The position numbers and the translations under genes are program-made. A DNA stretch of 64,000 nt from assembly GCA_028534125.1 (NCBI GenBank), contig CM052832.1:34224001-34288000 (forward strand). The letters are read 5' to 3'. A model generated the notes under the pieces. That model worked only from the letters and a program-made list of their open reading frames with translations, was not told the DNA's origin and did not search any database. The stretch's first letter is position 1. Each line of letters starts with the position of its first letter. This document shows positions 10,845 to 52,924 of this stretch, piece after piece. The stretch is from Lama glama (taxonomy: Eukaryota).

Positions 10845-10862
10845 ATGTCAGAACTCTAGCAG
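10845..10862 (+). CDS. Candidate 18-nt microexon of unassigned + strand gene
   Basis: cttttctcttctctgcattcatag|ATGTCAGAACTCTAGCAG|gttaga: strong pyrimidine tract and GT donor. Confidence 0.3.
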
Positions 10863-12531
10863 GTTAGATCCAGCGTGATTGGCATATTACGCAGGCTTTC
10901 TTTTCTTTCTTCTTTGAGAACCATTTTCTGCACGACAGGCTCTTGTCAAACCCCAGCATTGGCTGATCACCGAACAGAAGCCGGTCTTCGGGCAATCGCC
11001 GGCCGGCACCATAGCAAGTTGTTTTATGGTTTTTCCAAAGCATTAAGGCAACGTGAACATAGTGGAGAAAGCCATTAATCCTTCCATTACTTGGTTTTAG
11101 GAAGAGGAGGGTCATTCTCGATGCTGGAAGTCACTGCCATTTGAGAGTCAAGCCCCAAGGAGGAGGGACTTGGGCGAAAGGAAGTGAGAAGCCTGGTTTG
11201 GGGGGCTCATGCGATGGTGATGTCTTGGATGCAGCGGCAGCCGGAGGTCTGCTGCTCCAGTCAGGTTGTTGGTGACAGAGTCTCGGCCCCTGCTTGTTGG
11301 AGCACCTGCTCGGTGACACCTGGAAAAGCAGCGGCCTGAGAGGGAGGGGGAGGCAGAGTGACGGCGCCCCGTCTGCCTCGAATCTTCCCTGGGGTCCCCC
11401 GAGCTGCCTGGTACGAGGCACAGTTTGGACACAAGTGGCACTGAGAAGTGTCCTGCTGAGGCTCTGCTGACCCCCACGGCCGGACTCCTCCTTAAAGTCC
11501 TGTGTGGTCATCCTCGTGCTCGGAATTCCAATCACGTGGAGCCCCCGTCCCGGGTCCCACCAGCCCGGGCCCCCAGGCCGCTGGGAGCCCGGGCTCTTCG
11601 CCTCCGCTGGTGGGGGCTGGCAGGGCAGGCAAGCTGACTCTCGCTCCCGTGAGCTCCCACCAGAAATCAAGAGCTTTGAAAATTATCAGTGTTTTTCCCA
11701 AACCCAAGGTTTATGATGATTGTTGTTGCTATTCTTACTTATTTTTTGCTATTAACAAAATCTACGCTGACCACAGGGGTCGCTCTCAGGAAAGGAAATA
11801 AAATTCTGTTGAAGGTAAAATAAGCGAGATTCTGGTCCAGGCCTTTCTACGATCGGAGGTGAAGGCACGTCCAGGCAGCTTGCTTCGCGGACGTGGGCCT
11901 CGGCTTGCCGACCGTGTACACGTTGCTGGAGGAGCGCTGGGTGGATGGTCCCTGAGTCTCCTGCTCGCACGCTGGTCCTGATTCTGCACGTGCTCTTCAG
12001 CGGAGGCTGCGCCCGCGAGTCTCGGTGCTCTTTATTTGTGCCGCGGGTGCTCACGTTTGGTCATGAGCTACACCATGAAATTTAGGACAGGCTGTGTCTT
12101 TGTAAAGAAAACACATTTAACGTTAGAACCTTTTGGAACAAGGTGGGTTTAAAAAGATGGCTGTATAAAGTTTTATTTCAAGTAGAACAAATTTAGGTGA
12201 TGATTACCCTTGACCCAGATTTCTGGGTTTTGCTAAGAATGTGGAACACACTTTTGCAGTTACGGGGTTGGATCTGAGTTTCCTGACTCCGTAGCAAGCT
12301 TCACAGAGGACGTTCGTGTAACTGGATCCGGGGCCGAGCCAAAGCAGCAAGCAAGCCGTTCTCTTCACCAGTCGTCATTGCTCCTCCAAGTTGCCTCTCG
12401 TTTCTTTTATACGGCTCATCAGCCGCTGGAACCACTTCAGGGCAGTGTTGCCGTTCCTCCCTTGGCACTGAAGCAGACTTACCGAGCTAATCCGTTACCC
12501 CTGCTTTTGAAATACAAGCACTGATTGGCAG

Positions 12532-12551
12532 GTTTATGCCAAACATCTTGC
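12532..12551 (+). CDS. Candidate small exon (alternative acceptor would start it at 12519)
   Basis: ggcag|GTTTATGCCAAACATCTTGC|gtgagt. The donor is consensus; the acceptor is ambiguous. Confidence 0.3.
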
Positions 12552-12843
12552 GTGAGTTTCTCCTGGAAGCTGTGGAGTCTAACCTGAAAAGGGAGGAGGA
12601 GGATCTCCTAGCGATGCAAGCGTATCGCGGCCCGAGGCTGCGCTTGGAGCCGCCGCCCGGTTACCGTGCGGTGCGTTTCTGTACTTGGACATCGACCCCA
12701 AAGATTCTGGTGTCTCAGGCTGACCGGGAAGCGCGCGGCCTTTCTCGGCCCCTGATGTAGACTGACGCGTAAAGGAAGCTTCTCCCGTTCCCCTCACTCG
12801 TCAAATGGCTCTGCTCTTTCTTTTCCTTCCCCTCCTCGGACAG

Positions 12844-12892
12844 GAGCGGTCGACCCAGTGGAGATCACTTCCCCCCACTTTTAAGGACTTGG
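12844..12892 (+). CDS. Candidate 49-nt exon (ERSTQWRSLPPTFKDL in one frame)
   Basis: ctgctctttcttttccttcccctcctcggacag|...GGACTTGG|gtaaag: very strong acceptor and a good donor. Confidence 0.4.
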
Positions 12893-12959
12893 GTAAAGAG
12901 CTCTCAGTCTAAAGAAGAACGTGTTTGCTCGGCCCGGTCCTGCCCGGGGGTCCTCCAGC

Positions 12960-13600
12960 CCGACCTCCCCCCACTGCTTCTTCTCAAACAGCCGGTCTCC
13001 CTCGAGCGCCTCCATGAGAAGCTGGTCTGTTCCCTCCTCACCCGCCTCTCTCGCGCTTCTGACGCCCGCCGGGCACTATCCGGCCTTCCCTCTGCCTTCT
13101 CTTGGTCTCCGCGGAGCGTTCAGTGCTGACAGCCACGCGCTGCCCTTTAAACCTCCTCCTCCCGGGACCTCTGCTCCGTCCAAGCTCGGTCCTCTGTCTC
13201 CTCGCCGACTCCTTTTCTCTCGGTCCTCCCCGGGGCCCCCCTGCGGCCCGGGCTCCGCCAGTGCAACCGCGCTCCGGTCCCCAGCAAACGTCTTGGTCTC
13301 ACGCCCCCAGCTGTCGCCCCGAAGCTGGGACGCTCGTCCCGAGGTCTGCTCTGCCTCCAGCCTCCTGTCGTTGGCTATTCCCCGAGGGTCTTTGCTTGGA
13401 TGCGTCGCAGGCGTCTCAAGCTCAACACGTCCAAAGTCACAGTGACGCGGCTGGTTCCCTTTCTCAGCAGCTTTGTTTCCACGAAGGGCGTCATCACCCA
13501 CCTGACAGCTTCAGGGTCTCGGGATGATCTTCTGTGCTTTCTCTCCCGTCTCCTCTCACGTGGCTGTGTGGAGGTGGTGACAGGTGCTTGCTGTTTCTGT
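12960..13600 (+). mobile_element. LINE-2 fragment
   Basis: C/T-rich tract containing the L2 motif gtctcaagctcaacacgtccaaagtc. Confidence 0.6.
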
Positions 13601-13739
13601 TTCCACGTCACTCCTCAGGGTTAGTGGTGGCACCGGTGGCACCGCTCCCCACTGAGAGAGACGCTGGATTTGAACGATTCGACCAGCAGCCCCGGGACGA
13701 GACCATACAGCGACTAACTGGATGGGTCTGAGTCAGCCT

Positions 13740-13947
13740 TGTGTGTGTGTGTGTGTCTGTGTGTATGTGATGTATGTGTGCTGTGTGTGTGATATGTGTG
13801 TGGTGTGTGTGTGGTGTGTGTATATGTGTGTGTGTTGTGTGTGCGTGATATGTATGTGCTGTGTGTGTGTATGTGTGTGAGGTCTGTGTGTAGTGTGTGT
13901 GTATGTGTGTGTCTGTGCGTGATGTGTGCGTGATGTGTGCTTGTGTA
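13740..13947. repeat. Degenerate (TG)n microsatellite, about 200 bp
   Basis: Directly visible; produces the His/Thr ORFs on the - strand. Confidence 0.95.
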
Positions 13948-14039
13948 CATTCTTAACCCCTCTTCTTTTCACCCCTTTTTTCTTGTTTGCTCAAAGACCT
14001 TCCCGTGCTCCACGTCACTCGCATTGTCCTGCAATTTGC

Positions 14040-16050
14040 TGTGAATTCTCACCAATTATCTTTTGCACGTGGACCCCCCCACTCAGTGTTAGTCTCACGT
14101 GTGGTGTGAGGCAGAGTCCCTCTCAATTTCTTTCCCTCCAGATGGTTTGCCATGTGGCCAACCTCATTTATTTAATAAACCCACCTCCACCCACCAAAAT
14201 GAAATACCAACCATGTTATTTATTTCATCCTCACAGAAATGCAGATCTGTTTCCAGAATCCTGTTTTGTCTCATTAGCCTGCTTGCCTGTCTTTATGCCA
14301 ACGCAGTCTCATTCTGTTGGCCTGACAGTGACTTACTGGGTCTCAATAGCTGGCGAGGCCGTTCCCCGCCCCACCGCAGCCCCGCATGTGCTTGGAACTT
14401 TCTCTTTGCTACCTTTGGTCGTCGATTTTTCCTTATGAAACTTAAGATAACTTAATTCAACCCACATTCCTCCCAAATCCAGTAAGATGAAAATTGCAGT
14501 TTTATGTTATATATTAATTTTGGGTGATTGACCATTTATCATATTGAATCTTTCATTCAAGAACATGACAGATCTTCCCCTTTGTTCAGAGCTTGTTTTA
14601 CGTCCTTTGATAAGACGTCATGGTTTTCTTCACATGATGTAAACGATGTTTCTTACGGGATGGTTTCCTGTTTTATAGACATTGCTATCATGAATTAAAC
14701 ATTTCCCCAATATGCATTTTTAGTGATTTAATATCACTATAGAAAAACAGTTATGGATTTTTGTGTGTTTATCTTGTATGTGGGTAGATACCGTATAAAT
14801 CCATTGATGAATTCTAATTTTTTTTCCTGAGGTGTCTTGAATGTCATACGTATAGAACCACATTGCCAGCAGGGAAAGAAACTCTGCCCTCACACTCCCC
14901 ATTTTCATACCGACTGTTTTCTTTCCTCATCGTATTCGCCAATTCACCACCTCTCTGAGTAGCACCTGCAGGAGCGGCCATCCCTGTGTCTTCCAGATTT
15001 TAGTGCAGAAACACCGATTCTTCGTGTACAACGAGGCCCGTCGCATTCAGTCATCTGTGACACAGGGCATGTGCAATTTCTGTCCCCGTTTATTGGTGGG
15101 ACGGCCACTGACTTATTACCAAAGGCTTCTCGGTGCGTTTGTGTGACTCCCCTTGTGGGTGGAGGGAGCTGTCTGGCTGTGCTTCCAAACAGTTATGCAC
15201 ACTCACTCTCGGGTTAAACCTGATTTGATCATATTCTTTCTTTTGAGACACTCTGGATTTCATTCGGAACTTAAAATTTTTAAATTCATAAATGATATCT
15301 GTCTATGGGATTTGGGGGGTTCTGTGCTAATTTTGTCAAATTTTGTTATTAAAGATGTGCTAGCTTTAGAGACTGAATTAGGGAAATCTCCACCTTTTCG
15401 TATGCCATAGGCTAGTATGTTACAACACTCAGATTCACTTTAAAGGAATGTCAGGCAGGACGCGGCCCAGCTGTCCCGGGGGTCGATGGCAGGTCTTTAA
15501 TCACTCGTCCAGCCTCTCCCATAGCACGTGCGCGGCTTCCCTTCTCCTTGGGGAAGTTTTGGCTTTTCTGTATTTGTTAGAAAAATCAGTCATCCTTCTA
15601 GGCTTGAACCTCTCTGCCCCAGAGCTACATGCTGCACACTTACTGCTCCTACAACCCCTTCTTGTCTGCATTTTTCTCTTCCCCAATTTATATTTACTTT
15701 TCAACTTTTCTTTCTCTTTATCAGGCCCACGAAGGGGTGATCTATTTTAATGGTCTTTCCAAATAATCAGCTTTAGGATTTACTTCTCTTTTCTACTATT
15801 TTTTCTTATTTTTTTTTAATTTCGGCTTATTTTTTATTGATTCATCCTGCTTTGTTTTAGACTGTCCCCCGATGGAGCAGGTACTGCCGCCGTCACTGCG
15901 TGCTTGGCTCTGACGTTTCCTGTGACTGCCTTCTACACAGAGTTAATTTAAAATTTCGCATTCGGTTCTGTGACGTGGATTACTTAGTTTCTGAGAAAGC
16001 CATTGTCACTGTATTTTTCTAATTTTGTTGGATTATAATCAGAATATCCT
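14040..16050 (-). mobile_element. Ancient L1M(E)-type ORF2 fragments, antisense
   Basis: gtggtgtgaggcagagtcc, atattgaatctttcattcaagaacatg, gtgtgtttatcttgtatg, ctctggatttcattcgg. T-rich and interrupted. Confidence 0.75.
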
Positions 16051-17599
16051 AACTTACTTTTTTCTGTTAGACCTAATTCTGAAAGGAGTGTATTGACAAA
16101 TTTAGTTGTAATTGTTTTTGGCTGAATACACGTTTGTGGCTTTTATATATTTTGAATTTGCTTAATGATCTAAAGAAACCTTTAAATTACACCTTTTTAA
16201 AATTAACGCTGTGACTCTGCCTTTGCTGGTGTCTGTCCACGGCGGCACACTCTGCTCGTGTGTCCGCCCACATTTAAAGGCCAGCCTTGTACACAGACAG
16301 CAGCAGTTTCACAGACAGAGCTCACCACGAGCCCTCCCCAGAGCGAGGAGGAGGATGAACGAGAAGAACACGGATCAGTCACTGACGCTAAAGGGTGTGG
16401 TGCTTGGCGCGCGAGGCCCGGCAGGCGGACGATGAGCAGGACCCTCCGTGTGCTCGGCCGCCAGCCCCACTCACTCACTCGTCTGGTTCTCCTCTCTTTG
16501 GACGAAGCCTCTGTTCTCCCACAAAAACATGTATTAATTCCAAATATATGTACACACACAAGTAAAATAAAAGCAGGATAAATCCTTCACGCTGACAGTC
16601 TCTGTAAAGAACGCCATTGATAAGACAAGCTCCAGGTAGGTTCTAGCTCTGGGTTTGCAGTTTCGGGTCTGGTTGGGCCAGACTGAACACCTCTGAGGAG
16701 CTCTGGTAAGCGTCTAAGCCCCAGCCGGGGGGCAGCGGGGGGCCACCGACCAGCTCCAATGGGTCTTCTGCCGATTTCTGGGATGTGGACGCTGCTGGAC
16801 TTGGGGCTGCTGGGGTGCTGGCCTGGCTGTGGGTCGGCGATGCTCCGCTGCCTCTGCGGGTTCAGTGTTTCTTCCCCAGGCTGCGTTTCGGGAAGAACCC
16901 AGACCCCTGTCTACACTGCAGCCGACCTCACCGGGCGGTGGGCACTGCCGTGTGTGGGTGTGAAAATAGCCCCAGCTACTCGACGGACCAGCTCCTCAGA
17001 CACATTCCTGTGGTTTACTGGATGTTTTTAGTAATTTAGTCACAACTTTAAGTGTCTAATTACAGGATTTCGTTTTTATTTTTGAAAGCAATGTAGTCTT
17101 GACGCAGGCGGGCTCTCGGTGCACACCCTGCCTTATTAACTGTCTCCTCCTGGCAGACCCAGTGCAGGGTCGCCCCCGTGTCTGGACCCCTCGCAGCGCT
17201 GGGTTTTAGCGCTGAGGGCTCGGTCAAGGGGAGTTAAACTCCCCTCCTCGTCTCGCGTGGCTCCTCTGAAGTGGCGAAGCAAGCGTCCTAAGGGCGTCGG
17301 CTGGGTGTGGTCAGTCAGGACCAGGGACCTGTGCTTTCTGGATCCATCTGCTTCTCCCAGCTCTGGCCAGCTGTTAGTAGGAGTCCATTTACACAGCTGC
17401 AGGGCCGGTTGGGCTGTTGTTCCCTCCTGGGAAAAGCTACCATCACCCAGTAGGAGCGTTCGCTTTAAATGTCTTTCTGTGAAGTCCGGCTCACATTGTG
17501 AGGAAAGCAGGATTTGCGTGCGATCACTCTAAGAGTAAAGTGATGAATGTCTGTCAGGTGCCCCCTGCGTGGGACTGCGCCCACCAGGCCGTCCGCACC

Positions 17600-17720
17600 A
17601 AACCCTCCCGACCGCCTTCGTTCCCGTGTCAGCGGACGAGGGCTGAGGTCACTGACGTGGCTCGCCCGGGTCGGTCTCGTGCGGCCAGCAGGTGGCAGGG
17701 CCCGAGTCTGACCCCTCCTT
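17600..17720. mobile_element. MIR remnant
   Basis: gcggacgagggctgaggtc...gccagcaggtggcagggcccgagtctgaccc resembles the MIR core. Confidence 0.5.
17682..17700 (+). promoter_or_regulatory. Candidate CTCF site within MIR remnant
   Basis: ggccagcaggtggcag is a full match to the CCASYAGRKGGCRS core. Confidence 0.45.
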
Positions 17721-18182
17721 GCCCGGGGCCGCTACCCCAGGGCCACGTCAAGCAGGGTCCTGGGAACTCACCGGCCGGACTGGAGCTCCAGTGACGCTGG
17801 GTTAGGACACGGAGGTTTCAAGGTGCCGGTGTGCCCCGGGAGCTCTCATTCAAAGCACTTAGGGCTGGCGTTCCCACCGTCTCCCCGAGGGAGGGAGGCT
17901 GCCCCTCACTCTGATGCCGTGGCAGCCTCCTGTGTCCCGGCCTCCACACTCCGCCTGGAGTCACTGCGTCGGGTCTCCTCCTACAGGGCACGGATGCGCC
18001 AGCTCCCGGACTTTCAGATAAAGGCCAAGCCCCGGGGTGCGTGGTCCAGCAAGCCCACCCACAGACACTCCTCCGGAACCTGACCTCTTCCTTGGATTCA
18101 GCCTCCACCGGAGGCGCAGGTCACAAAGCGTTCTCGTCTTAGCGTCACCACTGCTGTGTATTCGCGTAGCATTCTTGTTTAG

Positions 18183-18213
18183 AGGAGCTGGTCCAGGAGT
18201 CACATTTATGGAA
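18183..18213 (+). CDS. Candidate 31-nt exon
   Basis: cattcttgtttag|AGGAGCTGGTCCAGGAGTCACATTTATGGAA|gtgagg. Confidence 0.3.
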
Positions 18214-20189
18214 GTGAGGCTTGGAGAGCGTGTGTTCAGATGGCACCGGGTGGGAAGCGGCGGGTCAGAACTCGCCTGGCAGACTGTGGCGGGAGCGTCT
18301 GGTGTAGACGGGCCTCCGCCTCATGCAACTGGGCGAGGGTTTCGCGCGCCCGGCCCAGGCCCACGCGTGCGCGGGGGCTTGTGGGGTGGATGCGAGAGCA
18401 CGGCCCTGCCCCAGGCCGGTCACCGTCCTGGTGAGGGGATTTAGCAAAATTCAAGAGGGCCGCAAACACCTGACCCTGGGAAGGCGGTCGAGGGTGCCGC
18501 CAAGCATCGGGTGAGCAGGGAGGCCCGAGCCTGGGTGAGCGTGGCCGGTAACGACTTGCCCGGGAGGAGCGGGGATGGAAGGCTGGGGGCTGCGGAGACG
18601 CAGAGCAGCCTTACAGCTCGACGTGTAAGCGGCGAGTGAGCCGGCGACTAAGGGCGACCTCGGGAGACACACCCCGAATGAGCGGGGGCCTCTCGGAGCG
18701 CAAAGCGGGTGAGGTCAGAGAGCCCACGTGGAGGCTGAAGGGCTTCGAAGCGCAGAGCACGGGCCTCGGCAGGTGGCTACATGGAGTGTTAGTGTCATTA
18801 TAAAGAACGGAGCACTTTCTCCTGCACATGTGACAATTTTTTCCTCTATTCCTAAAAATCATATTGGGGGAACATCTCTTTTGCCAAAGTCCATAGTTCA
18901 GGTTCTGCCCCCAGCCCAGGTGGGCGGGAATGGCCCACGGCTGTGCGGTTTCGTAAGGGACCCAGGATGCGGGTGAGGAGGGGGGTCTGCCCGACCTGCG
19001 GGAGCAGGTCCCTCAGGTCAGGGTCTGGGCAGGGTTCCTCTCGAGCCAGGAAATGACTCCAGGGAGGAACGTGGCTGGGAGACGCAGGAGAGCCTTCCAG
19101 CCGGTCCCTAGAGGGCAGAGGCCGTGCCCCGCCCGGCAGAGAGCAGCGGGGACCGGGCTCCCCTCTCCTCGGTGCTGGCCGTGACCCTCGGTGTTCCCGC
19201 AGCTCCCTCTGGCCGAGCAGAGGCCGTCAAAGAGCAAAGATGGGAGGAGAGAGGCCGGGCCGGGACCCTCTGTGGGCGGCACCGGGGAGGGGGGAGCAGG
19301 GTTGCCAGTTGCTGCCGTGACTGCAGCCCTGTCCGTCACACAAGCTAACCGTCGAAATACACTCACAGGGCGATGCTCTGGAGGCATGTTGGTGCAGCGG
19401 GAATACACTTGCACCGCCACCGACCACGCAAAAATCAGAATGATTTCCCTGTTGGAAGCCGACCCTGAGGCCCCTCTGGCCTGCGTAGCCAGAGACTCAG
19501 TCTGCTCGGCGCCGGGGCCCCAGCTGCCCCGTGCGGTCAGGACTCGCGGTGCCCGCTGCGCTGCTCACCGTGGTTGGGAGGCCGGCCTGCAGTGCACACT
19601 ACGTGTGTCTGCGCTGTCGTCCGCAGGCCGCTGATTCTGATGCTTTCTGCCAAGTTTGTGCCCAGGGTCTGGGCCGGGAGCCCCATGCCCAGGGCACAGC
19701 TCCCTGGGTGACTGGTTGCCGTGCCCCCATGAGGGGCTTCCCCCAACGGGCTCTGCGGGGCTTCACCATGTCCTCACCCCTAAGAGGCCCCAGCCCCCGT
19801 CCTCTCCCCAGATGGGTCACCTCCCCGGCCACAGGCCCCTCTGCTCTTCCTTTTGGGGTGCAGGGGGTGGGGGGCTTCATCCTCCTCCCGGGTGTCTCTC
19901 TGTCTGAGGGTAGGTCCAGGTAGGTCCAGTGGGTCCCCGGCCACCGTCGGGGACTGCAGCCCCTCCTCTGCCCTCCAGATGGGAAACACGATGGAGCCTT
20001 AAAAGAGGCCGGGCCCAGTCCCGGAGCTACCCCACCCTGAGCGCACCCCGCGGACCGGGGTCCTGCTGTCGGGGGACTGCGCTGTACGCTTTCCCTGCCC
20101 TTCCGACCCTCGGGGGTGCGAAGCGCAGGGGGCGGCAGGCTGCCAGCGGGATGCTCGCTGGTTGAAGTTGGCTGAGTCGCCTCTGCTCA

Positions 20190-20270
20190 GTTAATTGCCC
20201 TAATTGCTGCTTCACTGCACGGCTGTTTACTTGCTGCCTGATGCTGTTTGTGTCTCGCGTTGTTTACCTG
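20190..20270. promoter_or_regulatory. Candidate forkhead/homeodomain enhancer
   Basis: TAATTG twice (20192, 20201), TGTTTAC twice (20224, 20261) and TGTTTG (20245) within 80 bp. Confidence 0.4.
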
Positions 20271-20439
20271 GCGCTCCCGGGGAGCGCGTGGTCGGCCCGT
20301 CGCCAGCTCTGAGGATGCACAGAGAAGCGTGAGCGTCCTCACCATACAGGTGCGGCAAGTCTTGGAGACGCACAGAGGTGCCCTAGGAATCTTACTACCT
20401 CTAGAAACAGCTGCCATCTCTCGATGAACCGTGAGCTGA

Positions 20440-20600
20440 GAACTTACACGGAGCCTCATTATGTCTTCCCAGCAACTCAGTGAGATAGAAACGATTATCA
20501 GGGTTTTGGAGACGAGGAAACGATGAAACAGAGAGACCAAGGCCACAGAACGAGGAGGTGGCAGTCGTGGTGTGCGGACCTGGGTACCTGGGCCGGAGAC
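20440..20600. mobile_element. MIR remnant
   Basis: cccagcaactcagtgagatag...ttttggagacgaggaaac...ccaaggccacag. Confidence 0.55.
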
Positions 20601-21869
20601 ATCCTGTTACCTTAGTCACTATGGCCGTTAAGGAGCCAGCTTCTGGTTTTGGATTCTAAACGCACGAGGCAGGAGGCGGGACAGGACACAGTCCCTGTCC
20701 CTGCCTGCCCTGAGTGCTGCCCACATGCTTGCTGATGGCGTCCCCATTAGAAAGCCTTCTTTTTCAAAGACCGTATTATGGGCACATTTTGCTCTTCATT
20801 TCTTTTTCTCCTATTGTGCTTTTTCCCTCAAATTTTTATTGCGTTAAAACACTAACGCAAGTAACGTAAAGAAAATGGTTACAGTTGGGCAGAACCGCCA
20901 AGGCGAACTAACTCGTTCAGCCTGCTCGTTTTCAACAAGGCCGCTGTTGCAGTGAACGTTCAGGGTTGCCCGGGGCTGACCACACCTGCACACGTGGCCT
21001 GCAGCTGTGGCCCCGCTACTGCGTTTCCACTCAGCTGACTCCGGGCCCAGGGAAAACGGATCTGAAGGGAGGTGCGTTTGGCCTGATTAGAGGGTCAGGC
21101 GGTCCGGGTGTGGCCAGACAGGGCTGCCTGGGGCAGAGTGCAAGGGGTTGGCGCAAAAATGGGGACAGAACCATCCGATGGTATCCCGGGGGACGTTCGC
21201 TCCCTTCCTCTCCTGCGGAGCCTTCTTGCACTCTCCTTATTTCATGGCTTTGCACACCATCTCTCTGTCGCCCAGGCTGGTTGCCAAGTTGTTTGCCTAA
21301 TCGACGTCCCTCATCAGACCATCTCTTCTTTGTTCCACCTTTCCCCCTTTTCCCAAACTATTCTCCAGACTGTCAGAGTCAGCGTTCTAGAATACAAACT
21401 CGCTCGTCACTCCTTGCTCAGGATTTCTCAGACTCCAAAGGTCTCCTAGGTGAAATCTCAACTCCTTGTCACAGCACCGGAGGTTCTCTGTGACCGGGCG
21501 GCCGCCACCTGGCCCACATTCTCTTATTTCGCTCCCGACATCCTGTGCTCTGACCGTGTCCGGCTACTGGCAGACCCCCCAGTGCTCATTCTCTTTAGTG
21601 CCTCGTTCGCTTTCCGGATGTTCTTCTCTCTAACTAGATTCCCTCCCCCATTTATTATCCCAGCTACTTGCATCTGTTGTTTCATATTTCAAGGACAATC
21701 AACCCTTCCTCTTGCAGCAAGTCTTTCTTCTCGATTACCCACTTCAAAAGGGTGGAAAAGGCTACCCTCCCCGTCTTGGTCTCATCTTGCTCTGCGCATC
21801 TTCATCCATCACGTCGCGGTTACCACCTCCACCATCATCGCCGTGCTCGCCACTGAGCGGTGACTCTCC

Positions 21870-22030
21870 TGTCACTGATTCACCAAATATTTGTTAAGTA
21901 CCTACTATGTGTTAAAGCTGTCCTTGGTGCTGAGAAAACCTAATGTGGCCCTGCCCTGCTAGAGTCTAGGGCACGAGACAGACAAATCTCAAACCAACCA
22001 ACAACTGTAACGTTACAAAGTAAAATGTGT
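21870..22030 (-). mobile_element. LINE-2 3' end
   Basis: attcaccaaatatttgttaagtacctactatgtg...gtgctgaga...gccctgccct...tctag is the classic reverse-complemented L2 tail. Confidence 0.75.
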
Positions 22031-22559
22031 GACATGAAACAAAAGAACCGGGAACGAGAGCGAGAACGCAAGGACGAGGACGGCTGCCAGGACCACGGGC
22101 TCCAAGTCCAGAGCTCTTTGCATGCACCTCTGCTTCCCAGAACGGGGGCGGGGAGGCGGGCGAGGGCCAGCAGGACTGTGCTGGTCGGGCAGTAACTGAT
22201 TCGGGAGGAGACTCTTGAGAGAGGCTCTCACACCAGACTGGGTGGAAACAGGACGCTGCAGTGAGCGATTGGCTGGCCTTCTTGATCTCCAATTTGCAAT
22301 GAGAAGATGAGCTTGGGTCTGAGATGAGGCTGAGCACCACCTCAAGGGCTCTTAAAGCAACATTTGCTGCATTTTTTTCTAACAAGGAAAAGCTGTGCAC
22401 AGAAATAAAGAGGAAATGCCAGAGAACAGAGAAAGGCACAAAGATAATACAAAAAAATATCAAAATCACTAGCATTTCTGCCGCCCAGATCTAGACAGTG
22501 CGTTTCTGTTTCAGATACATACATGAACACGTGTGTATGTCTGCTTATTCAGAAAGGTC

Positions 22560-24361: not shown

Positions 24362-24445
24362 CATCAGTAAATTAGAGCTGAAAGGACCTTGGGGGTAATC
24401 TAGTCCCACCCCGGCATTTTATAGACGAGGAAAGTGAGGCCTCCC
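24362..24445. mobile_element. MIR3-like fragment
   Basis: ttagagctgaaaggaccttggggg...tctagtcc...cattttatagacgaggaaagtgaggc. Confidence 0.7.
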
Positions 24446-39794: not shown

Positions 39795-39975
39795 GTGTGG
39801 CCTTCAGTCTCCTTCCTGCCTTGCATGTGAGTGTGATGGTTGGAGCTGCAGCAGCTGTCTTGCAACCATGCGGGGAAGGGTAGAAGAGGTGCAGAGACGT
39901 GAGCCTGGCATCACTGATCAGCTGCATATGCTGCTTACGCTGAAACGCGCCATTATGTTAGACCTGAGCCCTTCT
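39795..39975 (+). mobile_element. MaLR LTR fragment (MLT1J/K-like)
   Basis: cttcctgccttgcatgtgagtgtgatggttggagctgcagcagctgtcttgcaaccatg. Confidence 0.7.
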
Positions 39976-40045
39976 AACGCCGTCGTAGTCCAGTCTTCTG
40001 CCACTTGCCGCTCAGTGCGTCCCTAACCGATTGGTGACCTCTCAG

Positions 40046-40059
40046 GCGTTTCTTTACAA
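40046..40059 (+). CDS. Candidate 14-nt microexon
   Basis: Branch-point consensus ccctaac (40021), then gacctctcag|GCGTTTCTTTACAA|gtgagt. Confidence 0.3.
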
Positions 40060-43000: not shown

Positions 43001-43415
43001 TCGTAGAGAAATTAAAATAAAGCAAGTCAAATCGTGCCTGGCAGGGAGCGCCTGGCGACAGCCGGTGGCTGGCACTGCTGTGACCACGTTTCAGAGGAAG
43101 AGGTGATTCTGACACACACCGAAGTGTGGGAACCGCCGTTATGGCGGAAAAGGACCCTGGTCTGTGTACCCAGCACGATTCCTCCAGACGCGAACGTCGC
43201 GGTGGAGGGAGGTCCTCATCACCCCCTTCAGGGTCTGGACCCCTGGGGTGGGGGGGTCCCGTGAAGGCAGGACAGCGCATCTAGACCCGCCTCGCTTTTC
43301 CGATGGGAGGGGTCAGCAGCCCCGCAGGCAGAGGCTCACAGCCGGGGGTGCCGGCGCAGCCTGCCGCTCCCGCCGCCTGCAGCGAGGCCCTGGCCCCTCT
43401 CCTCACTTCTTTCTA

Positions 43416-44019
43416 TCAGCCACGCAGTACGTTTGGCTGAACCGGGGCTTCTTTGTCTGAGGGGGAGCCATCGGGGGGGCAGGGCTCTGCAGAGGGAGGG
43501 CAGAACTTCAGCGGGACGCGCGTCACAGATGCCCCTGTGAACCAGCTTGCTTCCCCTAGGGCGACGCCTCCGGGGGATGTCTCAGCAAGTCCGTCTCCGC
43601 CGGAGGACACGCAGCCTCCCCCCAGGGTCTGGTCCAGTTTCAGCAGGAATGTCTCGAGCAATGTTCCCACGGCCTCTTCCGGAGGCAGCAGCCGAGTCTT
43701 CAGAACAGATCGACCCAGGTACTCTCTCCCCCTTTCACTTCTTGAGCCGGAGAACGGGTCCTTTGAGAAGCGTCTCCGTCCCTGGCCTCTGTGTACACGA
43801 GGTGCGAAGTGAGTGTTTTGTGGGTCCACACGCCAACGTAGTCGCTCAGAGGCCGGAGGACATCCTCCTCGGCTGACGGAGTTCAAGACCACGCGCCCCG
43901 CACGCTCTTGGGCTTTACCCAGGTCCGAGCCCTGAGTCCGAGCGCCCCAGCTTCTCTCCCCTCCGTCAGCTTCCCTCGGAGCCAGTGTGTGAATTCCTCT
44001 GAGTGGGTTCTTGCCAAGG
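43416..44019 (-). CDS. Candidate antisense exon with a 200-codon open frame, product unassigned
   Basis: The frame is open from tttctaag| (44020) to TGA at 43416, in phase with candidate exon 44573-44601. The acceptor is weak. Confidence 0.2.
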
Positions 44020-44572
44020 CTTAGAAACTAGTTTAAGTTTTTCTCATGAATGATCTCAGGCAGATTTGATTTAAAGCCTTCAGTTAAATCAGTTTTCATT
44101 CAGGAAGAAGGAGGGGGAATCGGAAGAGGAGGGGGCCTGGGGGAGGGGAGGAACGGGAGGACGAGGGACGCGGTCCACTTTAAGCACTGCTCCTTTAATG
44201 ACGTCTCTCAGATTGCTTCTGCCACTACACGAGGAAGCACGCTATTAATGCGGTTTGTGTGTGTTCGGTTCTTAATTGAGGTGTCTGTAATCGAACATCG
44301 CACTCGTGGACGCAGGGAGGACACTCACCCCGGTTGGGAGGGGGACGGCCACCGCCACGGATAAACCCCGCGCGTTTAAGTGCTCGCTGCACCGCAGACA
44401 GCAGGCTTGCATGCTCTGTCTGTTTCCCCATGTTTATTTTTGTAAAAACAGCATATGGATTTTTAATCGGCTTCATTTTTCTAAATCCTACATACGCTCC
44501 TTTAAAGTGAAACTCAAGTGGGCTTCCTTCCCAGTCGACGTGGAAACAGATGGTGATGAGCGGTGCACTTAC

Positions 44573-44601
44573 TTTCTCTTCCCCGTCCACGACTTTCTGA
44601 T
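44573..44601 (-). CDS. Candidate antisense 29-nt exon (IRKSWTGKR or DQKVVDGEEK)
   Basis: Minus strand: gtctctcttttctggttcaaag|ATCAGAAAGTCGTGGACGGGGAAGAGAAA|gtaagt. Confidence 0.3.
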
Positions 44602-47119
44602 CTTTGAACCAGAAAAGAGAGACGTGCACCATTCTTCAAAGCATTAGACGACTTTCTTCGATTTTAACTGAGTTAATCCAAGAGAAGAGAACATTGTTTC
44701 CACGCTGTCGACGTTTCCGGTGTTAAAATCGGCCCTGTGGCCACGCCTGCTGTGACCACGGGAGCTTAAATGGCTGCCAGGCCTCCACCGGGGGCTCGTG
44801 GACGAGCCGGGCGCCCTGCCGTGCTCCGCCCCTGGGGCCGGCCCTCGAGGTCACCTTCCCAGGGTCACCGCTTGTCCTTTGCAGCAGTTAGGGACACTGA
44901 CACTGGACTGAACCTTGGGAAGAAGCTCAAGGAAAGATCTGGAAGGGGACACACAGGCTGACGCCATCGTGAACCGGCCTGATGTCTGCGTGGCCCGGTC
45001 CTGCCCTGTTGAAACAAGACGGCCGGTCTCGGCTCTGACGTGGCCCCTCAAAGCCGGTGCCTGACATGCCCTCCGGTATTTGATCCAACGGAGGGTCAGT
45101 GTTTGTACGAAAGATCAGTCGCTCTGTGCCCTGGACGCCCCGGGGACTCAGCCCTCCTTTCTGGCTTTGGCTCTGTGGCCTGAGGACGGCCAGGCCTCCG
45201 GATGCTCCCTCCAGCCCCTCTTCCCGCCTCCCGAGCCCCTGACTCGCTCCTCCAGAGCTTCTTTGTGCTCTTACAGCCGAGCGCCCCTCGGGGCTGTCCG
45301 GCCACCTACACGGTCCTCGTCTTCCTCCTCCGCTGCCGGAGCCGCCCGACACCGCGGCCGGGTCTCGGGTCGTTCCTCCTCTTCGGGGACCACGTCCGGC
45401 CCTCGGTCCCCTGACCGCCCTCGTCTGACTTGCTCCAGCCTCCAGGCAGACCCTCGGCTTGTGCGGGTCTGCAGGGCTGCACGGGGCACTTGGGGGCCGT
45501 GGATGGAAGTGTGGGCTCTCCTCTGAGGTCCCTGCTCCTGCGTGGGCATGGGGGTGTCCAGGGGGCTCGGGCTGGCACTGAGTGTCCCGGGCTCCGGGTC
45601 AGCAGCCCAGGGACAGTTCTGATGGGGGGAAGGCTCGCGCTCAGCGGGCAGCGGGATGCCGACATGCCGTCCGTGTCACCACTGTGCACTGTGCCTTTGA
45701 GACACTCGCTGTCTTCCGCAGTGTTTGCCTGGTTTTGTCTCTCGGCTGGACTGAAAGCTCCTTGGAGGAGAGGACAGGACTGAGATGACAATGTGAACGA
45801 CTGATTAGACGAGACCCAGCAGCTGTCCTCGAACGCGCGTCAGCCCGTCAGCATTAAAAGGCAGAGCAGGACGCGTTTTGTTGCCTGAAGGGACGCACTT
45901 AGGTTCCAGACACCTCCGATCCGGGAGGAAGCTGCACGAACCTGGGGGCCTCTCACTCTGCGATTTCAGTGGGGAAAGAGCTGGGACCCCGGCCCCCAGC
46001 CCCACCCATGGCTGGGGGAGCGACTCCCTGCTCTACCAAGACGAGGGGCCCAGGGGCAAGCCAGAGAGAAGACAGAGACGAAAAAGGAAAAGGGGAGGGG
46101 GCGGGGCAGGGGCAGGGCAGGTGTGGGGAGGGACCCAGCCAAAGGGCCTCCGGGGTGTGGTCCCCAAATTCACCATCCTTAAAGTCTCTGGACAATTACC
46201 ATCCCCCTGTTTGAGCATTTGCCCCCTTTCACTTCTGCAAGGGACGGCCGTGGGGCATCCCGGACCAGGCTGCATGGCGGCGGCTGTGTGTCCAGGAGGC
46301 TCGCTGCGAAGCCCCGGCTCGGAGCCGCCGGGCTCCAGCCCTCCCCACGCTTTGGATCGCACCCGCCCGGCACCGTGGAACCCTGCCCTGCGTTTGCTCT
46401 CGCGGTGCAGCGGCGCTTCCCTGGGACGCCTGGGCCAGCTTGGTTCACGTCACCGCCCTCTGGTCACTGTCTCTCTGGGGCGCGAGGGGGTCACCATTAC
46501 CCGGCTGTTGCCCCTTTTTCCGAAGGGCCAGCCCTCGCGAAAGCTTGGCCACGTTTTCGAAGGTCGGAGGATGGAAACTTCTGTGGCGTCTGTTGAGTAT
46601 TTGCACCTGCATTTAATTTACTGGAGGCAGATGAAGAGCAGCCGTTACCCAAGCAGATGTAATAGTCGCCCCAGTTAGTGAGGAAGCTGGAAGTGGCATT
46701 TGAGGGAAGCCGGAGTCAGCAGTCGTCGGGGAGTAGCGGTCGACGCTCCTGCCTGAGCCACCCTCGCTGGCTTCACTTCAGTTACCAGGCCGTGTTTGTT
46801 CCCTTCCGGGACTTCACGTGCAGGCGCTGCCGACAGTGGCCCGTCATTAGATGAGCTGAGGGAGAGCCACGCCCCACAGCCCTGGGCCAGGTCGGGATCC
46901 CCAGGCTGGTCCTGGAGGGCTGAGCCGCGCAGGGCTTGGCAGACCTTCTGTCTAACTGGGTCCCAGTCCTGCCTCCGCGGCCACAGGGGACGGTGGTCCC
47001 AGCGGACGCCTGACAGGGGCTCAGCTGTGCACCTGCACAGGCTCACAAAAATCAGCCGACCATCCTGAGATCATAGGAAATGGCACTAAGTCGGCGGGGA
47101 CCGCGGGTGGGCAGCCCTG

Positions 47120-47190
47120 ACGTACAGGGTGTGGGGGTCGTACAGGGTGGGGGGTCGTACGGGGTGGGGGTCGTACGGGGTGGGGGGTCG
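47120..47190 (+). repeat. Short G-rich tandem repeat (about 4 x tcgtac[a/g]gggtggggg)
   Basis: Directly visible 16-18 nt units. Confidence 0.9.
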
Positions 47191-50100
47191 CTGATGTCTC
47201 GGATGCGCAGAGGCTTTGTCTCCTCTTATTTCTAGACTCTTAGTTCGGGAGCCAAGGTGGCTGAAGACGGGGGTCGGGAAACCACACACCTGCGGCCCCT
47301 GGGGCCGTTTCACGGCCACCTGTGGTGACAAAGGCAGGCTCGGTCGTCCCTAGTGACCTCACAGCCCACGAATCCTGAACGTCACTGCCTGGCCCGTCGC
47401 AGACAACGTCCGTGGGGCCCAGCTGAGCGCAGCCAGCGGCAGTCGTGACCTGAACGGAAGGCACAAGGCGGGCATTTGTGCGTCACACACACTCAGGAAA
47501 CACTTTGTCCTGAATCGGCTGTTCACAGATAAACCTGACAAACGGGTGAACAGAAGTTTCTGACTATTCTGCCACCAGAAGCAGCCCTCATTATGTCCCC
47601 TGAGTAACTCGAGGCCGCCTCCCCGGGCCTCCTGAGCACCTGCAGCCAGCGCTGCTCTGCGTGAGCCCATCTGGTCATCAGAACCAGGGGCACCCGGAGG
47701 AAGGGATGGGGGTCAGTGGGGGGCTGGCCCGCCCCCGGCAGCTTGGGCGCAGCCTCGGCCTCCGTCTGCAGCGATTTGCCGATGTTTCTTCTCAGGAGAC
47801 TCCGTGCTCGGTCTCGCTGGCCGACGTGAAGCCCCCGCCCAGCTACTCATCTGCAGGAAAGTGCGGGTGATGGGAGGGCGGCGCGGGTGCTTGGTGCCTG
47901 TCCTGCAGAGGCCGTGCTGGGGGAGGCGGGAACCCGGAGCAGGGCTGGTCAGCTCCAGGTGAGGGCGATGGGTGACCTGACCGTCTATGACCATGTGCCC
48001 CCTGGGCGCCCAGGACCGTGACCCCAGGAGGGAGAGAGACCATATACAGGGCTGCTGAGCCTGGAGAGCAGGAGTCCCGCCCCTGGGACTGCAGGGCGCG
48101 CCTTCTCAGGGTAGGTCACAGCCCTGCCAGGCCTGAGCTCGGGGCCACCTGGGCAGTGGGGGCCCTGCCAGGTCAGATGACGGCGTCCCCTGGGGCCCCC
48201 GCTCTGCCTCCCGCTCCGGGGCACCGCGTCACCACCAGCCAACCACCACCTCCTGTGCAAGGAGAAGGGGGTGTTTCGTAGGGAAGAGGCTTTTGACTGG
48301 CTTGTGGGGCTCGGGGGAGGAGGATCACTTTGGAGAGGAAGAGGGCTGGGGATCTGTGCGCTCTGCCCGTCTCTAAGCCTGTGTGTGCTCGTGTGTGTGC
48401 GCGTGCCCTCCGGTGCCCAGGGCAACACGCCAGGTGGCCCGGCTTGGGGTCGGTCCCCCCACCGCTTGCCGACAGCGGAGGACACTTGTGCCATCACATC
48501 GGCACACTATTTCCTTCTTTCAGAGAAAGCCAGCTCCTCTCAGAGTCTATGGATCCTGCTCTGTGTGGCCGCTGCCCCTCCCCAGCAGGTGTGCGGTAGG
48601 GTCACTGCTGGGCCTGGCTAGCTGAGGAGGCCGTCCGCACACGTCTGGGGGGACTCGAGGCTGCTCTGACCGGAGACGGGCTCTGTCTTCTGCAGCCCTC
48701 GACGCTGGTCTGCGACCTGCTCTGTGAAGTCTGGGGTCTGCTGGTTCAGAGAGCCGCAGGCGGTGGCCCAGTTCCAGCGCCGGGCAGGGCCTGGGTCTGC
48801 GCGGGGCCACGTCTAGGATGTGCTGTGCGTGCTCGCGGTTGTGGGGGCAGGGCCGGCGCAGCACAGAGCCTGCATCATCCTCATGGCGCTTGGGCGACGG
48901 GAAGGCGCTGGGGCTGCAGCCCAGTGTGTGAGGATAATGTCCCTGGAATTCACGCCAACGGCCCGCGCCACCGCTCGGTCCGCCCTCCCAGCGCTCGGGC
49001 GGCCCAGGGGCAGAGCGCTCAGCCCCCCCGCTGAGGGCGGGGGTGGGGGCGGGGGCGGTGGGGTCCCGGGGAGCACTTTGAGTGGCCTGGAGGCTACTGG
49101 CTGCACCTCAAGGGCCAGCGACCCGGTTTTGGGAGGAAAGCCCTCCTGTTCTTCCCAGGTCGCGCTCGGGGGAAGCTACCTCAGAGAAAGCTCACTTCAA
49201 GGGCGAAGCTGCAGTCGCAGGAAACAGGAGTTTTGTTCTGGTGCCTCTTGAACTTCCTCTGGGAACGTGGAACAAAAGCCCCCCAAGCTCGTCGGTGCCG
49301 CTGCCCCCTGGGGGCCCGGCCAGAACCGCGGGGGGTGGGGGCGCCGCCCTGCCCTGAAGCAGGGGACACACTGCGCTTCCTTCCTCTGCACGTGGGCAGG
49401 CTGACAGGGGCGTCGCGGGGTGGAGGCCCTCTGCTAGGTGGCCCGGCCGCGGCCCCTTGCCCGAGCGCGGTGCCACCTAGTCCCAGCTGACCGCCCCTTC
49501 CGGGCTTTCCTTCGGGCGATTGGGATGGGGATGGCGGTTTACGCAGGGGCCTCGCTTCCTTGGCTGTATTTAGCTGCTAAAACGTGCTCGTGACCTCGTT
49601 CATGGGAGCCTTCATGTGCCCCGGCTTCTCCGCTACGCACGGTGTGGGGAGTGACAGCCGCACAGGTCACGTGGGAAACAAAACAAACAGAAGCCGAAGA
49701 GGCAGCGGACGTGCTAGGCGGGGGGAGCGCCTCATGGTGTACATGGCGGGACGCTAAGGAGGAATTAGGTTCTTCAACAAAAGGAACCTTAGAGAACGTC
49801 TCGTTTAATGGTTTTCAAACTTCACGCCGCCCGTGGACCTCTGATACGGGGAGAGAAGGGGTGGCGCTCGTGGGGGCCGGCGTGGCCTCAGGGCCTGTGG
49901 TCCCGTGGTCCCTCCATCCCCCACCCCCGCAGTGACGACGGAAGGTGGGGCTCCGCCTTCAGCCTGTTCCAAAGTGAGCACATCTGTTTGTTTTCATCTC
50001 ATTTTTGAAGAAGCCATTTCTGCAACTTTTTTCCAGTTTATATGATAATTTGATGTGGTCGGACAGACACATACATGTAATTTACAAATAGGTAAATGTA

Positions 50101-50482
50101 CTTCTTGGGCGTAGATATTCGAGGGGTTTCCTGGAGGGGGCGTGTACAATTCAAAGAGTTTGGAAGCCGCCAAACGGGACCCCAAATGGGAGGCCTGGTC
50201 TGCTTTTGCCTGAGGAGGTGGGAGGTGACAGGCTTCGCCCACACGTGGATGGACCGCTGCTGTTTGGACGGGTGGGCGGCCAGGCTCCTGCCCTCCCGCC
50301 GGGGCCCTGCGCATCGCAGCGGGCTGCCTTCCAGGCCCCAAGCTCTGTGCAGGCGTTGGCTGCAATGTCAGGGCCTCCAGGAGACCTGGAATAACCCTCA
50401 CAGGCTGGCCTCGCCTGCCTGGCTGGTCTCAATAATCATCTTCCTGTGACAAACATATTTTTTCTTTTCTCCCTACAAATAG

Positions 50483-50500
50483 ATCCATCAAAATCAAAAT
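50483..50500 (+). CDS. Candidate 18-nt microexon (xPSKSK in phase 1)
   Basis: tattttttcttttctccctacaaatag|ATCCATCAAAATCAAAAT|gtaaga: strong signals on both sides and open in all frames. Confidence 0.45.
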
Positions 50501-50925
50501 GTAAGAAAAAGAGAACAAACTGGCGACGTATGGAGGAGACAGAGCGACAAAAGTCAGGGCGTGGTGTGTCCCGCGGCCACGACAAGGCTTCCTTGCCTTG
50601 GGGTCTGAGTTTTGTCTTGGACACTGGCAGACGCGGGATGGAGCTGATGTGAGCAGAGGGTCCCCAGGGGGCCGTAGACGGCCCCTGGGGTGCCAGCCGG
50701 GACTGCCCCAGGTCTGTGGGTCAGTTGAGGGGAGCTGACCTCTTGTCTAGGCTGACTCTGCACTTGCGCAAGGCGTGTCTCTCCCCTCCTGTGGGCCTTT
50801 AACTTTCTCACACTGGTGTGTGGGTCTCACACGCCTTGGGTTCGATTGAGTCATGAGGTTGAGGTCATTGCAAATGGGGCTGTGCTTTTAGTTAAAATCC
50901 CCAAGAGCCCCTCAGTCATCGCTGG

Positions 50926-51232
50926 TGCAGCCATCGGCCTGCGGTGCGGGGACGGGCTCCGGGGCCCCAGACGCAAGGACGCCCCCTTCCTCTGTGAAAC
51001 GTTGCAGTTTTGTGTGCCACCTCCACTCGTCTGCTCTAGGTTACGCACAGTGCCGGGGACAGCGCGACTGTTACGTAAATACTTGTAAGTGCAATGCGAC
51101 GTAAACAGTTCCTGGCACGTGGCAAATTCACGTGTTGCCTTTTGGGACTTTATGGAATTTTTTAAAAATATTTTTGCTCTGTGGTTGTTTGACTCTGAGG
51201 ATACAGGACACGTGGACACGAGGGCTGACTGT
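50926..51232 (+). mobile_element. MER2/MER2B (TcMar-Tigger non-autonomous DNA transposon)
   Basis: ggcacgtggcaaattcacgtgttgccttttgggactttatggaatttttt...aatattttt...ggacacgagggctgactgta, i.e. a terminal repeat followed by TA. Confidence 0.75.
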
Positions 51233-52924
51233 ACACAGAGGTGCACTTGACTTTCATTGTCAGGCTTGTCCCCAGCACCCCGATACGCATGTTAACTCCT
51301 GCATCACTTTATTTAGAGCCCATTAGCCCTTCTGCGTGGGTGTTATGTTGTCTGTAAATCAGACAGGCTTAGTTCTTCCTTTGCCATCTGGATGCATTTG
51401 AGTTCGTTTCCTCGCCCGAAAGGCCTGCCCGGGCCCTTCAGTGCAGCCGTGAAGAGAAGAGCTGGAAGCCACGGTCCTCGTCTCGGTCTCAGGAATAACC
51501 CACCAGTGCTTCAGAGTGAAGAAGCTCCTCTCCTGTTTCTAGTTTACTGTAAGCTGGATTTTGTAAAATACTCTGTGTCCTTGAGATCATTAAATGTTTC
51601 TTCTTTTTTAGTTTATTAATATGGTAAAATATATTGATGATATTTGAATGCTAAACCAACATTGCAATCCTGGGTTGAGCCTCACTTAGTCATGACGAAT
51701 GTATGTGTATATATATGCGCATAGGTCCAAATATTCTAAAGAAAATGCCAGCAAATCAAATCCAGTAGACACAGAACACTGGATAATGTGTGTTATGATG
51801 TGATAAACTCAAATGTTTGAGGCCCATTTTGCGGTCAGACTGTAGACAGGAGTTAAAAGACGTAGGTCTCTTTCCTACAAGGTTACAGTCCAAGTGTGAA
51901 AAAAGCCACAAAAAAGCAACAGAAGTCGCAGAGTCACTCTGGTGTGGGGTAGACTTTAACGGCAGCGGGAATCTGGACAAAGCAAAGAGCGACAGAGCAG
52001 GGCAGCTGCAGGCGGAGGACTGCCCAGAGGAGGCGATCCCACGGACTGGTCACAACACCTAGACGTGACCGTCCCCTGCGGCTCCCCCAGGTGCGGCCTG
52101 AGCAGGTGAGCGGAGGGAGGATGGCTGAGTGAGTGGAGAGGTCGGCCCAGGAAAGACTGCAGATTTTATCCGCAGTGCGTCTGCAAGCCACGGGTGGGCT
52201 TCAGTAGCAGGGAAACTCGGTCCTGTCGACACGTGAGGTCACTTTGCTGAGGAACGGACGGGGGCAGGAAGAACGGGAGGGTGGTGAGCCCTCCTGAGAC
52301 ACGGAGCAGGACGGCTGTGGTCAGGCCACGCATCCAGAGTGGACCCAGGCAGCCCCGTTGGGACGGGCCTTGGGCGCGCCCGGCTGTGGGGTATCCGCTG
52401 GAGGTCCAGCCCGGGCTCCATGCAGGGGCGGGTTTCCAAGAGCCGGACAGAGGCCGGTTCAGCACCGCGTTTGCAGGAGGAGGGTTATAGTGATGGTCCC
52501 ACCTGGTCAGACCAGGTCGGGAGACAGGCTGGGAGGGCTCCTGGGCGGGAAGACGGGTCGCACCGTTAGACTGCAGTGTGGATTCCAGCAAAGGCCTGAG
52601 GCCGAGGGCAAACCTGAGCAAGTGAGTTTAAAAGGAGGGGGTGGTGGGCAGAGTGTGAGATGTCTGAAGCTTCAGAAGTGGGAGCTAACTTTCAATGAAC
52701 GTGGTAAAAGCTTAGCATTTTTTCATTACGATTTTCAGGACACCACATTTCCCTCCAGCTAGGACCTTGAATTCCTTCCTTTTCCTGTCGGGCTTAAAAC
52801 TGCTTCTCCTAATGGTGTCAGAGACCTACCTAGAGACTTAAAAGTGCAGAGCTCATCATTCCACACCATCAAAGGGTATGGACGTCTGGGAATTCCTTTC
52901 CAGCCCTTATGGGAGGTCGACACA

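Follow-up and report, generated by a model that had tools for sequence, protein, structure and literature searches.

A spliced, probably non-coding plus strand RNA in the FOXQ1-EXOC2 interval of Lama glama, and the evidence on a chain of small exons proposed for the same strand

Introduction

A stretch of 64,000 nucleotides (nt) of the Lama glama genome (GCA_028534125.1, contig CM052832.1, positions 34,224,001 to 34,288,000; hereafter the window, with positions counted from its first letter) sits by synteny in the gap between FOXQ1 and EXOC2, and probably holds a spliced plus strand RNA that is best read as a long non-coding RNA (lncRNA). A preliminary description of this window had proposed, on the same strand, a hidden gene of 10 or 11 short segments, the last ending at 51952, which join into one open frame for a basic, Ser/Lys-rich protein. 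In the interpretation favoured here, this chain probably consists in large part of pseudo-exons chosen to keep the frame open. The reading is carried by two splice junctions, 50648>51040 and 51084>51423, found in RNA contigs of a related species, and by a skew in base composition that covers most of the window.

RNA evidence for a spliced plus strand unit

Of the 21 sequencing runs listed, 9 that are RNA, or are guessed to be RNA, hold a small share of the stretch; four of the 9 carry the label reproductive system. The contigs of four runs (X1, X2, X5 and X6), one per study, were aligned to positions 34001-53000; such assembled contigs show presence, not absence, ends or levels, and 24 of 58 loose ends and 12 of 71 insertions or deletions (indels) were seen. 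Two of the five joints in these contigs are GT-AG introns on the plus strand, each present in both X1 and X2 (studies P1 and P2). The joint 50648>51041, with one letter between, resolves to an intron at 50649-51039 (391 nt, GTGAGC..CTCTAG), and the joint 51068>51423, with ten letters between, resolves to an intron at 51085-51422 (338 nt, GTAAGT..CGAAAG). Since unspliced contigs run across both introns in X1, X2 and X5, the joints are splices and not deletions in the relative; moreover, all four splice sites are intact in Lama glama, which is about 5% diverged from the RNA source species. The exons and the elements associated with them are the following:

49646..50648, plus strand: exon up to the RNA-shown donor (GTGAGC at 50649), with the joint in X1 and X2; its 5' end lies near 49650 if it is the first exon, at 50483 if it is entered from upstream
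51040..51084, plus strand: internal exon of 45 nt, seen in RNA contigs; shorter by an in-frame 6 nt in the relative
51423..51770, plus strand: likely last exon; start from RNA, end probably between ATTAAA at 51589 and about 51770
51517..51696, no strand assigned: old interspersed repeat in the last exon (39 of the 40 scored matches elsewhere in the genome, 70-81% identical, query 118-297)
49040..49750, plus strand: candidate internal promoter, with a GC box at 49046, CCAAT at 49518, an E-box at 49665 and a YY1-like motif at 49742

The linked exons alone exceed 280 nt, and the contigs stretch the first exon to about 49650, so that the RNA is over 200 nt long. Within the first exon X1 extends over 49927-50648, and X2 begins at 49646 with an adaptor-like loose end, for which strand invasion at the G run beside 49646 is an equal explanation. 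The candidate promoter has a CpG observed/expected ratio of 0.75-0.78, at about the 90th percentile of the gap, and the motifs assigned to it are putative. At the other end, the depth of X2 is 343 at 51550, within the likely last exon, and a candidate polyadenylation (poly(A)) signal, ATTAAA at 51589, lies inside the old repeat, which we take from its resemblance to be L1-like, and upstream of the last segment of the proposed chain at 51882.

The exons drawn in the preliminary description differ from those used by the RNA, which has donor 50648, exon 51040-51084 and an exon from 51423 onward, not 50500>51882. Among the five joints from these four low-depth runs, none corresponds to the junctions 34239>40046, 40059>50483 or 50500>51882, nor to 34239>51882 with intervening letters; in X2 and X5, the bins that contain 34135 and 51882 are empty. 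In X1 and X2 the acceptor at 50483 and the donor at 50500 are both traversed by unbroken contigs. What has been borne out is the existence of a spliced plus strand unit unseen by open reading frame (ORF) tracks, through its two GT-AG junctions and the skew domain, and the fallback of the earlier proposal, a spliced lncRNA, is now the best reading, albeit with exons other than those drawn.

The three remaining joints (37926>46103, 45857>46239 and 47857>48008) are without GT-AG ends and were attributed to indels or to matches in repeats. At 45858-46238 the contig of the relative skips 381 nt, with four shared letters at its non-GT-AG ends, which is likely an insertion here or a deletion there. 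Furthermore, an X2 contig at 39472-39791 reaches a depth of 100, far above its neighbours, with no joint, and another X2 contig, at 41714-42547 (depth 30), has at 42547 an adaptor-like end oriented as the start of a minus strand RNA; this end lies at a C run and may be an artefact.

Strand asymmetry and a possible mechanism

10001..60000, plus strand: window part of a domain of T over A skew that begins some 20 kb before the window and reaches about 60 kb

An excess of T over A on the plus strand sets in at about -20 or -30 kb and lasts until about 60 kb, where the skew goes down to zero. Measured in GC-rich tiles only, (T-A)/(T+A) is 0.083 +/- 0.016 at 10-52 kb, and 0.002, -0.027 and -0.016 elsewhere in the gap; the same measure gives 0.132 in EXOC2 (plus strand) and -0.075 and -0.088 in IRF4 and DUSP22 (minus strand). 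The excess over a linear trend is 0.085 +/- 0.014, the largest value outside being 0.009 among 108 overlapping blocks, and the drop near 60 kb is sharp and falls just beyond the RNA-shown last exon. In mammals, transcription is known to leave more T and G on the non-template strand (PMC2927911), and long-lived plus strand transcription over the skew domain is inferred on this basis.

Substitutions between Lama glama and the relative, classed as A/G vs T/C, number 189 vs 190 in X1, 161 vs 128 in X2, 58 vs 50 in X5 and 79 vs 109 in X6; they are unpolarised, and the lack of a steady A/G excess in these four runs is uninformative. None of the 40 substitutions listed, out of 693, falls within a segment of the chain. 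As regards the limits of the domain, an assembly gap of 500 N at 60453-60952 lies close to its end, which makes the 3' limit uncertain. A second plus strand block of T over A skew (sum about 0.15) is located at contig positions 34034001-34064000, beside the FOXC1 island, and presumably occupies the place where the divergent lncRNA FOXCUT would lie.

A mechanism may be outlined from these observations. RNA polymerase II would have been active for a long time on the plus strand, moving away from the FOXQ1 CpG island across some 80 kb and starting from a divergent promoter at that island or arriving by read-through from a FOXF2-divergent unit. Such transcription, in cells including the germ line, would leave an excess of T over A, and the T-richness would in turn create more acceptor-like sites on the plus strand and enlarge the pool of pseudo-exons. 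The shorter three-exon form would start near 49650 from the internal promoter and probably end at the ATTAAA supplied by the old repeat. Its function, if any, would likely be exerted in cis, by transcription through an enhancer-rich interval serving FOXF2, FOXQ1 and EXOC2; the enhancers of the interval activate FOXF2, and their action can be redirected to FOXQ1 and EXOC2 (PMC8060495).

The proposed chain of small exons

The segments of the chain, all on the plus strand, are given below.

2643..2707, plus strand: optional first segment, weak sites (2.9, 3.9)
10845..10862, plus strand: segment of 18 nt, best scored, rank 6 of 121
12532..12551, plus strand: segment of 20 nt, very weak sites (1.2, 3.5)
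12844..12892, plus strand: putative segment of 49 nt
18183..18213, plus strand: putative segment of 31 nt
25551..25636, plus strand: segment of 86 nt, a sharp AT-rich island that carries the first Met; single copy in the genome
30588..30615, plus strand: putative segment of 28 nt
34135..34239, plus strand: longest segment, at 105 nt; present once in the genome, and protein searches gave no homolog
40046..40059, plus strand: candidate segment of 14 nt
50483..50500, plus strand: segment of 18 nt; its acceptor outscores all others in the 530 nt leading up to the RNA-shown donor, and contigs span both ends unspliced
51882..51952, plus strand: candidate last segment with the TAG, beyond the RNA-shown last exon

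As a description of the letters, the proposal is accurate. AG precedes all 11 segments and GT follows all 10 internal ones, the joined segments yield the peptide that had been given, with its TAG at 51950-51952, and the two alternative frames are closed by stops between 12844 and 34239. Several segments had been noted as AT-rich islands, and all ten from 10845 on have a guanine plus cytosine (GC) content below that of their flanks, by 0.04 to 0.36. Only four of these ten segments are of 27 nt or less, two of them being of 18 nt. Seven of the ten are not multiples of three, and among the four of 27 nt or less two are.

The first Met of the chain is residue 41, inside segment 25551-25636 (Met at 25555), and the optional segment 2643-2707 contributes none. 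The search upstream for a start exon gave 10 candidates with an ATG and a donor, none of them outstanding, and no in-frame start at the 5' end.

Several sequence features lie around or between the segments. A CpG-island-like stretch at 12601-13701 (observed/expected up to 0.89) surrounds the segment at 12844 and could be another promoter or enhancer; a TG microsatellite follows at 13740-13939. A G-rich minisatellite at 25693-25885 begins 57 nt past segment 25551-25636, and a second one lies at 47121-47190.

Splice scores and the frequency of open chains

Splice sites were scored with a simple weight matrix, distinct from MaxEntScan and SpliceAI, and the reference junctions of EXOC2 (26 acceptors and 25 GT donors, one GC donor being omitted) were set by protein alignment and not by score. 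The mean acceptor score is 5.5 for the chain and 8.0 for EXOC2 (p 0.009), and the mean donor scores are 6.4 and 7.8, respectively (p 0.03); only one of the 10 internal segments is found among the 40 best plus strand exon candidates.

A pool of comparable exons was defined with the weaker sites of the proposed chain as thresholds, a size of 14-105 nt and a GC content below the flanks. It holds 121 AT-rich short exons on the plus strand, among which the eight better segments of the chain rank from 6 to 116. Eight-exon chains drawn from this pool are open in 1.97e9 of 5.21e11 cases, and 11 control strands likewise yield between 2.6e6 and 8.4e8 open chains each, their best mean chain scores being 15.4-17.3 vs 12.9 for the eight better exons proposed. 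The open frame, which had been offered as a sign of a gene, does not by itself stand out from chance, and across hand-picked AG/GT segments it is on its own no evidence. With frame-blind sampling, 129 of 20000 size-matched random chains of nine are open; the chain is notable only if it was picked without regard to frame, which cannot be known, and the near-background sites at 12532 and 2643 suggest that the pick was not frame-blind. The surplus of candidate exons on the plus strand (67 vs 43 clusters) equals that of EXOC2 (68 vs 44); being a consequence of the T skew, it adds no independent support.

The three top exon candidates of the window are all on the minus strand (24909-25035, 12483-12583 and 1511-1584, with scores of 21.6-22.5), the second of them overlapping the weakest segment of the chain, 12532-12551.

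Codon composition and homology

The AT-rich islands within GC-rich flanks had been taken as a sign of selection on a protein that resisted GC drift. Third positions should then have drifted, as did those of EXOC2, with a GC content at fourfold-degenerate sites of 0.76, but those of the chain have not (0.38, or 26 of 68, vs 0.57 in the flanks, p 0.002). The EXOC2 value is 0.68 near junctions and 0.60 in exons below 90 nt, and the coding exons of this gene are not AT-rich. Over the three codon positions GC is 0.43/0.50/0.42 in the chain and 0.59/0.41/0.75 in EXOC2, the chain being without a codon-position pattern like that of the neighbouring genes. The AT-richness of the segments does not point to coding.

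Protein and Pfam searches, with short queries, found no homolog of the pieces used, among them the two longest. The 105-nt segment 34135-34239 had no match among proteins of 82-2000 amino acids (aa), nor had the piece 50518-50649 among proteins of 78-2000 aa, a search that a 77-aa form in the relative would escape; as a positive control, a 48-aa exon of EXOC2 matched 989 proteins, many of them mammalian. Pfam gave no family for five pieces, Rfam no match at gathering score among 4227 families over the whole window, and the ESM Atlas a best value of 0.83, under its threshold. In the 2.35 Gb genome of the animal itself, four queries matched only themselves, with no retrocopy or paralog. The sole match of the 105-nt segment among 1.84 billion representative proteins (P0001, E 8.5e-5) was rejected as a chance hit to a 1488-aa bacterial-type repeat protein, in which seven repeats sum up, and three metagenome loci that share only an 8-residue word, with no DNA likeness, were rejected as well.

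Low fourfold GC, weak sites, the lack of a homolog in these searches, the absence of a Met before 25555 and the 11 ATGs that precede 50530 in the short three-exon form have been counted against coding.

Weighing the alternatives

50485..51498, plus strand: open frame of 94 codons in the phase of the proposed chain, through three RNA-linked exons; the first ATG, at 50530, gives 79 aa

Several observations weigh against a non-coding interpretation or limit its basis. With entry at 50483, the frame of the chain stays open through the RNA-linked exons and both other frames close, GC-matched random joins being equally open in 5.8% of cases for a given frame and in 16% for any frame. Among the 12 indels listed, seven lie in 50290-51550, and the single one inside the frame is of 6 nt; the six others (1, 1, 2, 2, 11, and 3 nt or a 1-nt insertion past the stop) are outside it. 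The eight better segments are A-richer than the other exons of the pool (skew -0.078 vs +0.074, p 0.049) and resemble real exons in this respect (EXOC2 skew -0.09). On the side of the data, the RNA has low depth and vague tissue labels and derives from a relative with about 94-96% similarity, and the strand is inferred from the GT-AG ends; the skew is mildly positive (0.03-0.05) across 175 kb upstream, and part of it may stem from replication; finally, the protein queries were of just 22-55 aa, and searches with short queries miss fast-evolving proteins and orthologs.

One alternative is a lineage-restricted coding gene of about a dozen small exons, which we consider unlikely. Most of the segments from 10845 to 40059 would be real, and the messenger RNA would enter at 50483 and continue through 51040-51084 and from 51423 to a stop at 51498. 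The product would be basic and rich in Ser, Lys and Arg, with a length of 211 aa or more (171 aa counted from the first Met), and likely of germ-cell type, the form seen in X1 and X2 being a short isoform from the internal promoter. The frame at 50483 matches exons that were not known when the chain was drawn, the 6-nt indel is in frame while frameshifting indels fall outside, and among the acceptors in the 530 nt ahead of the shown donor 50483 scores highest. In addition, the skew domain spans the whole chain, the segments are A-rich, four of the five runs recorded as RNA and holding part of the stretch are labelled reproductive system, and the figure of 129 in 20000 would apply to a frame-blind pick. 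However, the frame match was noticed post hoc and is of about 1 in 17, fourfold GC is low in a region that has drifted to GC, the homolog searches were empty, contigs cross 50483 unspliced in X1 and X2, and none of the 10 ATG-donor candidates upstream stands out as a start exon. The frame match, the spared indels, the acceptor and the A-richness are each modest and found after the fact; they speak for a coding gene of at least 211 aa with a corrected 3' end.

The opposite alternative, that no functional gene is present, is judged quite unlikely. It would involve low-level pervasive or enhancer-derived transcription with cryptic splicing, a skew left by replication or read-through, and segments that are all pseudo-exons. 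Unspliced contigs do fill 30 of 30 bins in X1 and outnumber spliced ones in X2 (56 vs 23), the adaptor-like end at 42547 hints at minus strand RNA as well, chance chains are abundant and enhancers have been mapped to this interval in mouse (PMC8060495). Nevertheless, the same two junctions recur in two studies, their four sites are intact despite a species distance of about 5%, and the skew drops steeply near 60 kb, a little downstream of the shown last exon.

Finally, it is very improbable that the chain exactly as drawn, with 50483-50500 followed by 51882-51952, is a spliced coding messenger RNA: its sites are canonical throughout, its frame is open and its donor at 50500 outscores the used donor at 50648 (7.7 vs 5.9), but the observed junctions use other sites, contigs of X1 and X2 continue through 50500 without splicing, 51882 lies downstream of the candidate poly(A) signal, segments 12532-12551 and 2643-2707 have near-background sites, and billions of equal chains exist.

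Comparison with known systems and significance

For the lncRNA favoured here, the closest points of comparison are found in the same gene cluster. The human FOXF2-DT (LINC01394) is the counterpart of the mouse 1700018A04Rik. The latter is an lncRNA divergent from Foxf2 that has been proposed to act in cis on Foxq1 (PMC8060495). Both share with the window RNA the gene cluster and the direction, away from a FOX promoter and towards EXOC2; FOXF2-DT, however, has its origin at the FOXF2 promoter, roughly 70 kb before the window with FOXQ1 in between, whereas the window exons lie about 70 kb beyond FOXQ1. The likeness is one of synteny. The human LINC01622 (6p25.3, between EXOC2 and FOXQ1) is a spliced lncRNA annotated in the same interval as the window RNA; it lies on the matching strand, and rough scaling would put it nearer to EXOC2 than the window.

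As regards the coding alternative, TSBP1/C6orf10 is a testis-type gene of many small exons, and the likeness would extend to short exons of mixed phase, a basic low-complexity product and fast evolution; genes of this type are annotated across mammals, whereas the segments of the chain gave no match in the searches. Neural microexons under the control of SRRM4 belong to known genes, where they form deeply conserved cassettes that preserve the frame. Four of the ten segments of the chain, at 27 nt or less, two of them of 18 nt, recall these microexons, but the length of seven of the ten is not divisible by three, and none sits in a recognised host gene.

As an lncRNA, the window RNA would add another spliced transcript to a developmental gene desert, an ordinary finding, though one that marks transcription through an enhancer interval. 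If the coding alternative were true, a conserved and much-studied cluster would contain a hidden gene of small exons that escapes both ORF tracks and annotation pipelines. Such a gene, with no known relative, would fill the first 70 kb of the FOXQ1-EXOC2 "desert", would be absent from the gene order described in human and mouse, and would provide a conserved developmental enhancer domain in which gene birth or loss could be put to the test.

Gene neighbourhood

The window corresponds to 34224001-34288000 of its scaffold and lies about 550 kb short of the end of this 34.8 Mb sequence; 200 kb upstream and 547 kb downstream of it were inspected. Upstream, three forkhead genes are found on the minus strand at about -200, -71 and -22 kb, the Forkhead domain having been confirmed for the one nearest to the window. 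They are provisionally named FOXC1, FOXF2 and FOXQ1, respectively, from their sequences, and the names fit the published order. Downstream, EXOC2 occupies 287-378 kb on the plus strand and is followed by IRF4 and DUSP22. In the first-intron region of EXOC2 (34479001-34514000), which is where the human retrogene HUS1B lies, no ATG-initiated ORF of at least 200 aa was found; the retrogene may be absent or broken here.

The literature searches, judged from listings and the passages cited, gave no paper on a coding gene in the FOXQ1-EXOC2 interval, although supplements could list such RNAs. The regional gene orders given in PMC1634998 and PMC8060495 show no coding gene at the site of the window, and the mouse interval, which houses Foxf2 enhancers, is termed intergenic (PMC8060495). 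On human chromosome 6 the order is DUSP22, IRF4, EXOC2, FOXQ1, FOXF2 and FOXC1, with a gap between EXOC2 and FOXQ1 that can exceed 500 kb (PMC1634998). The neighbours of the window follow this same order, and the window is therefore placed in the FOXQ1-EXOC2 gap.

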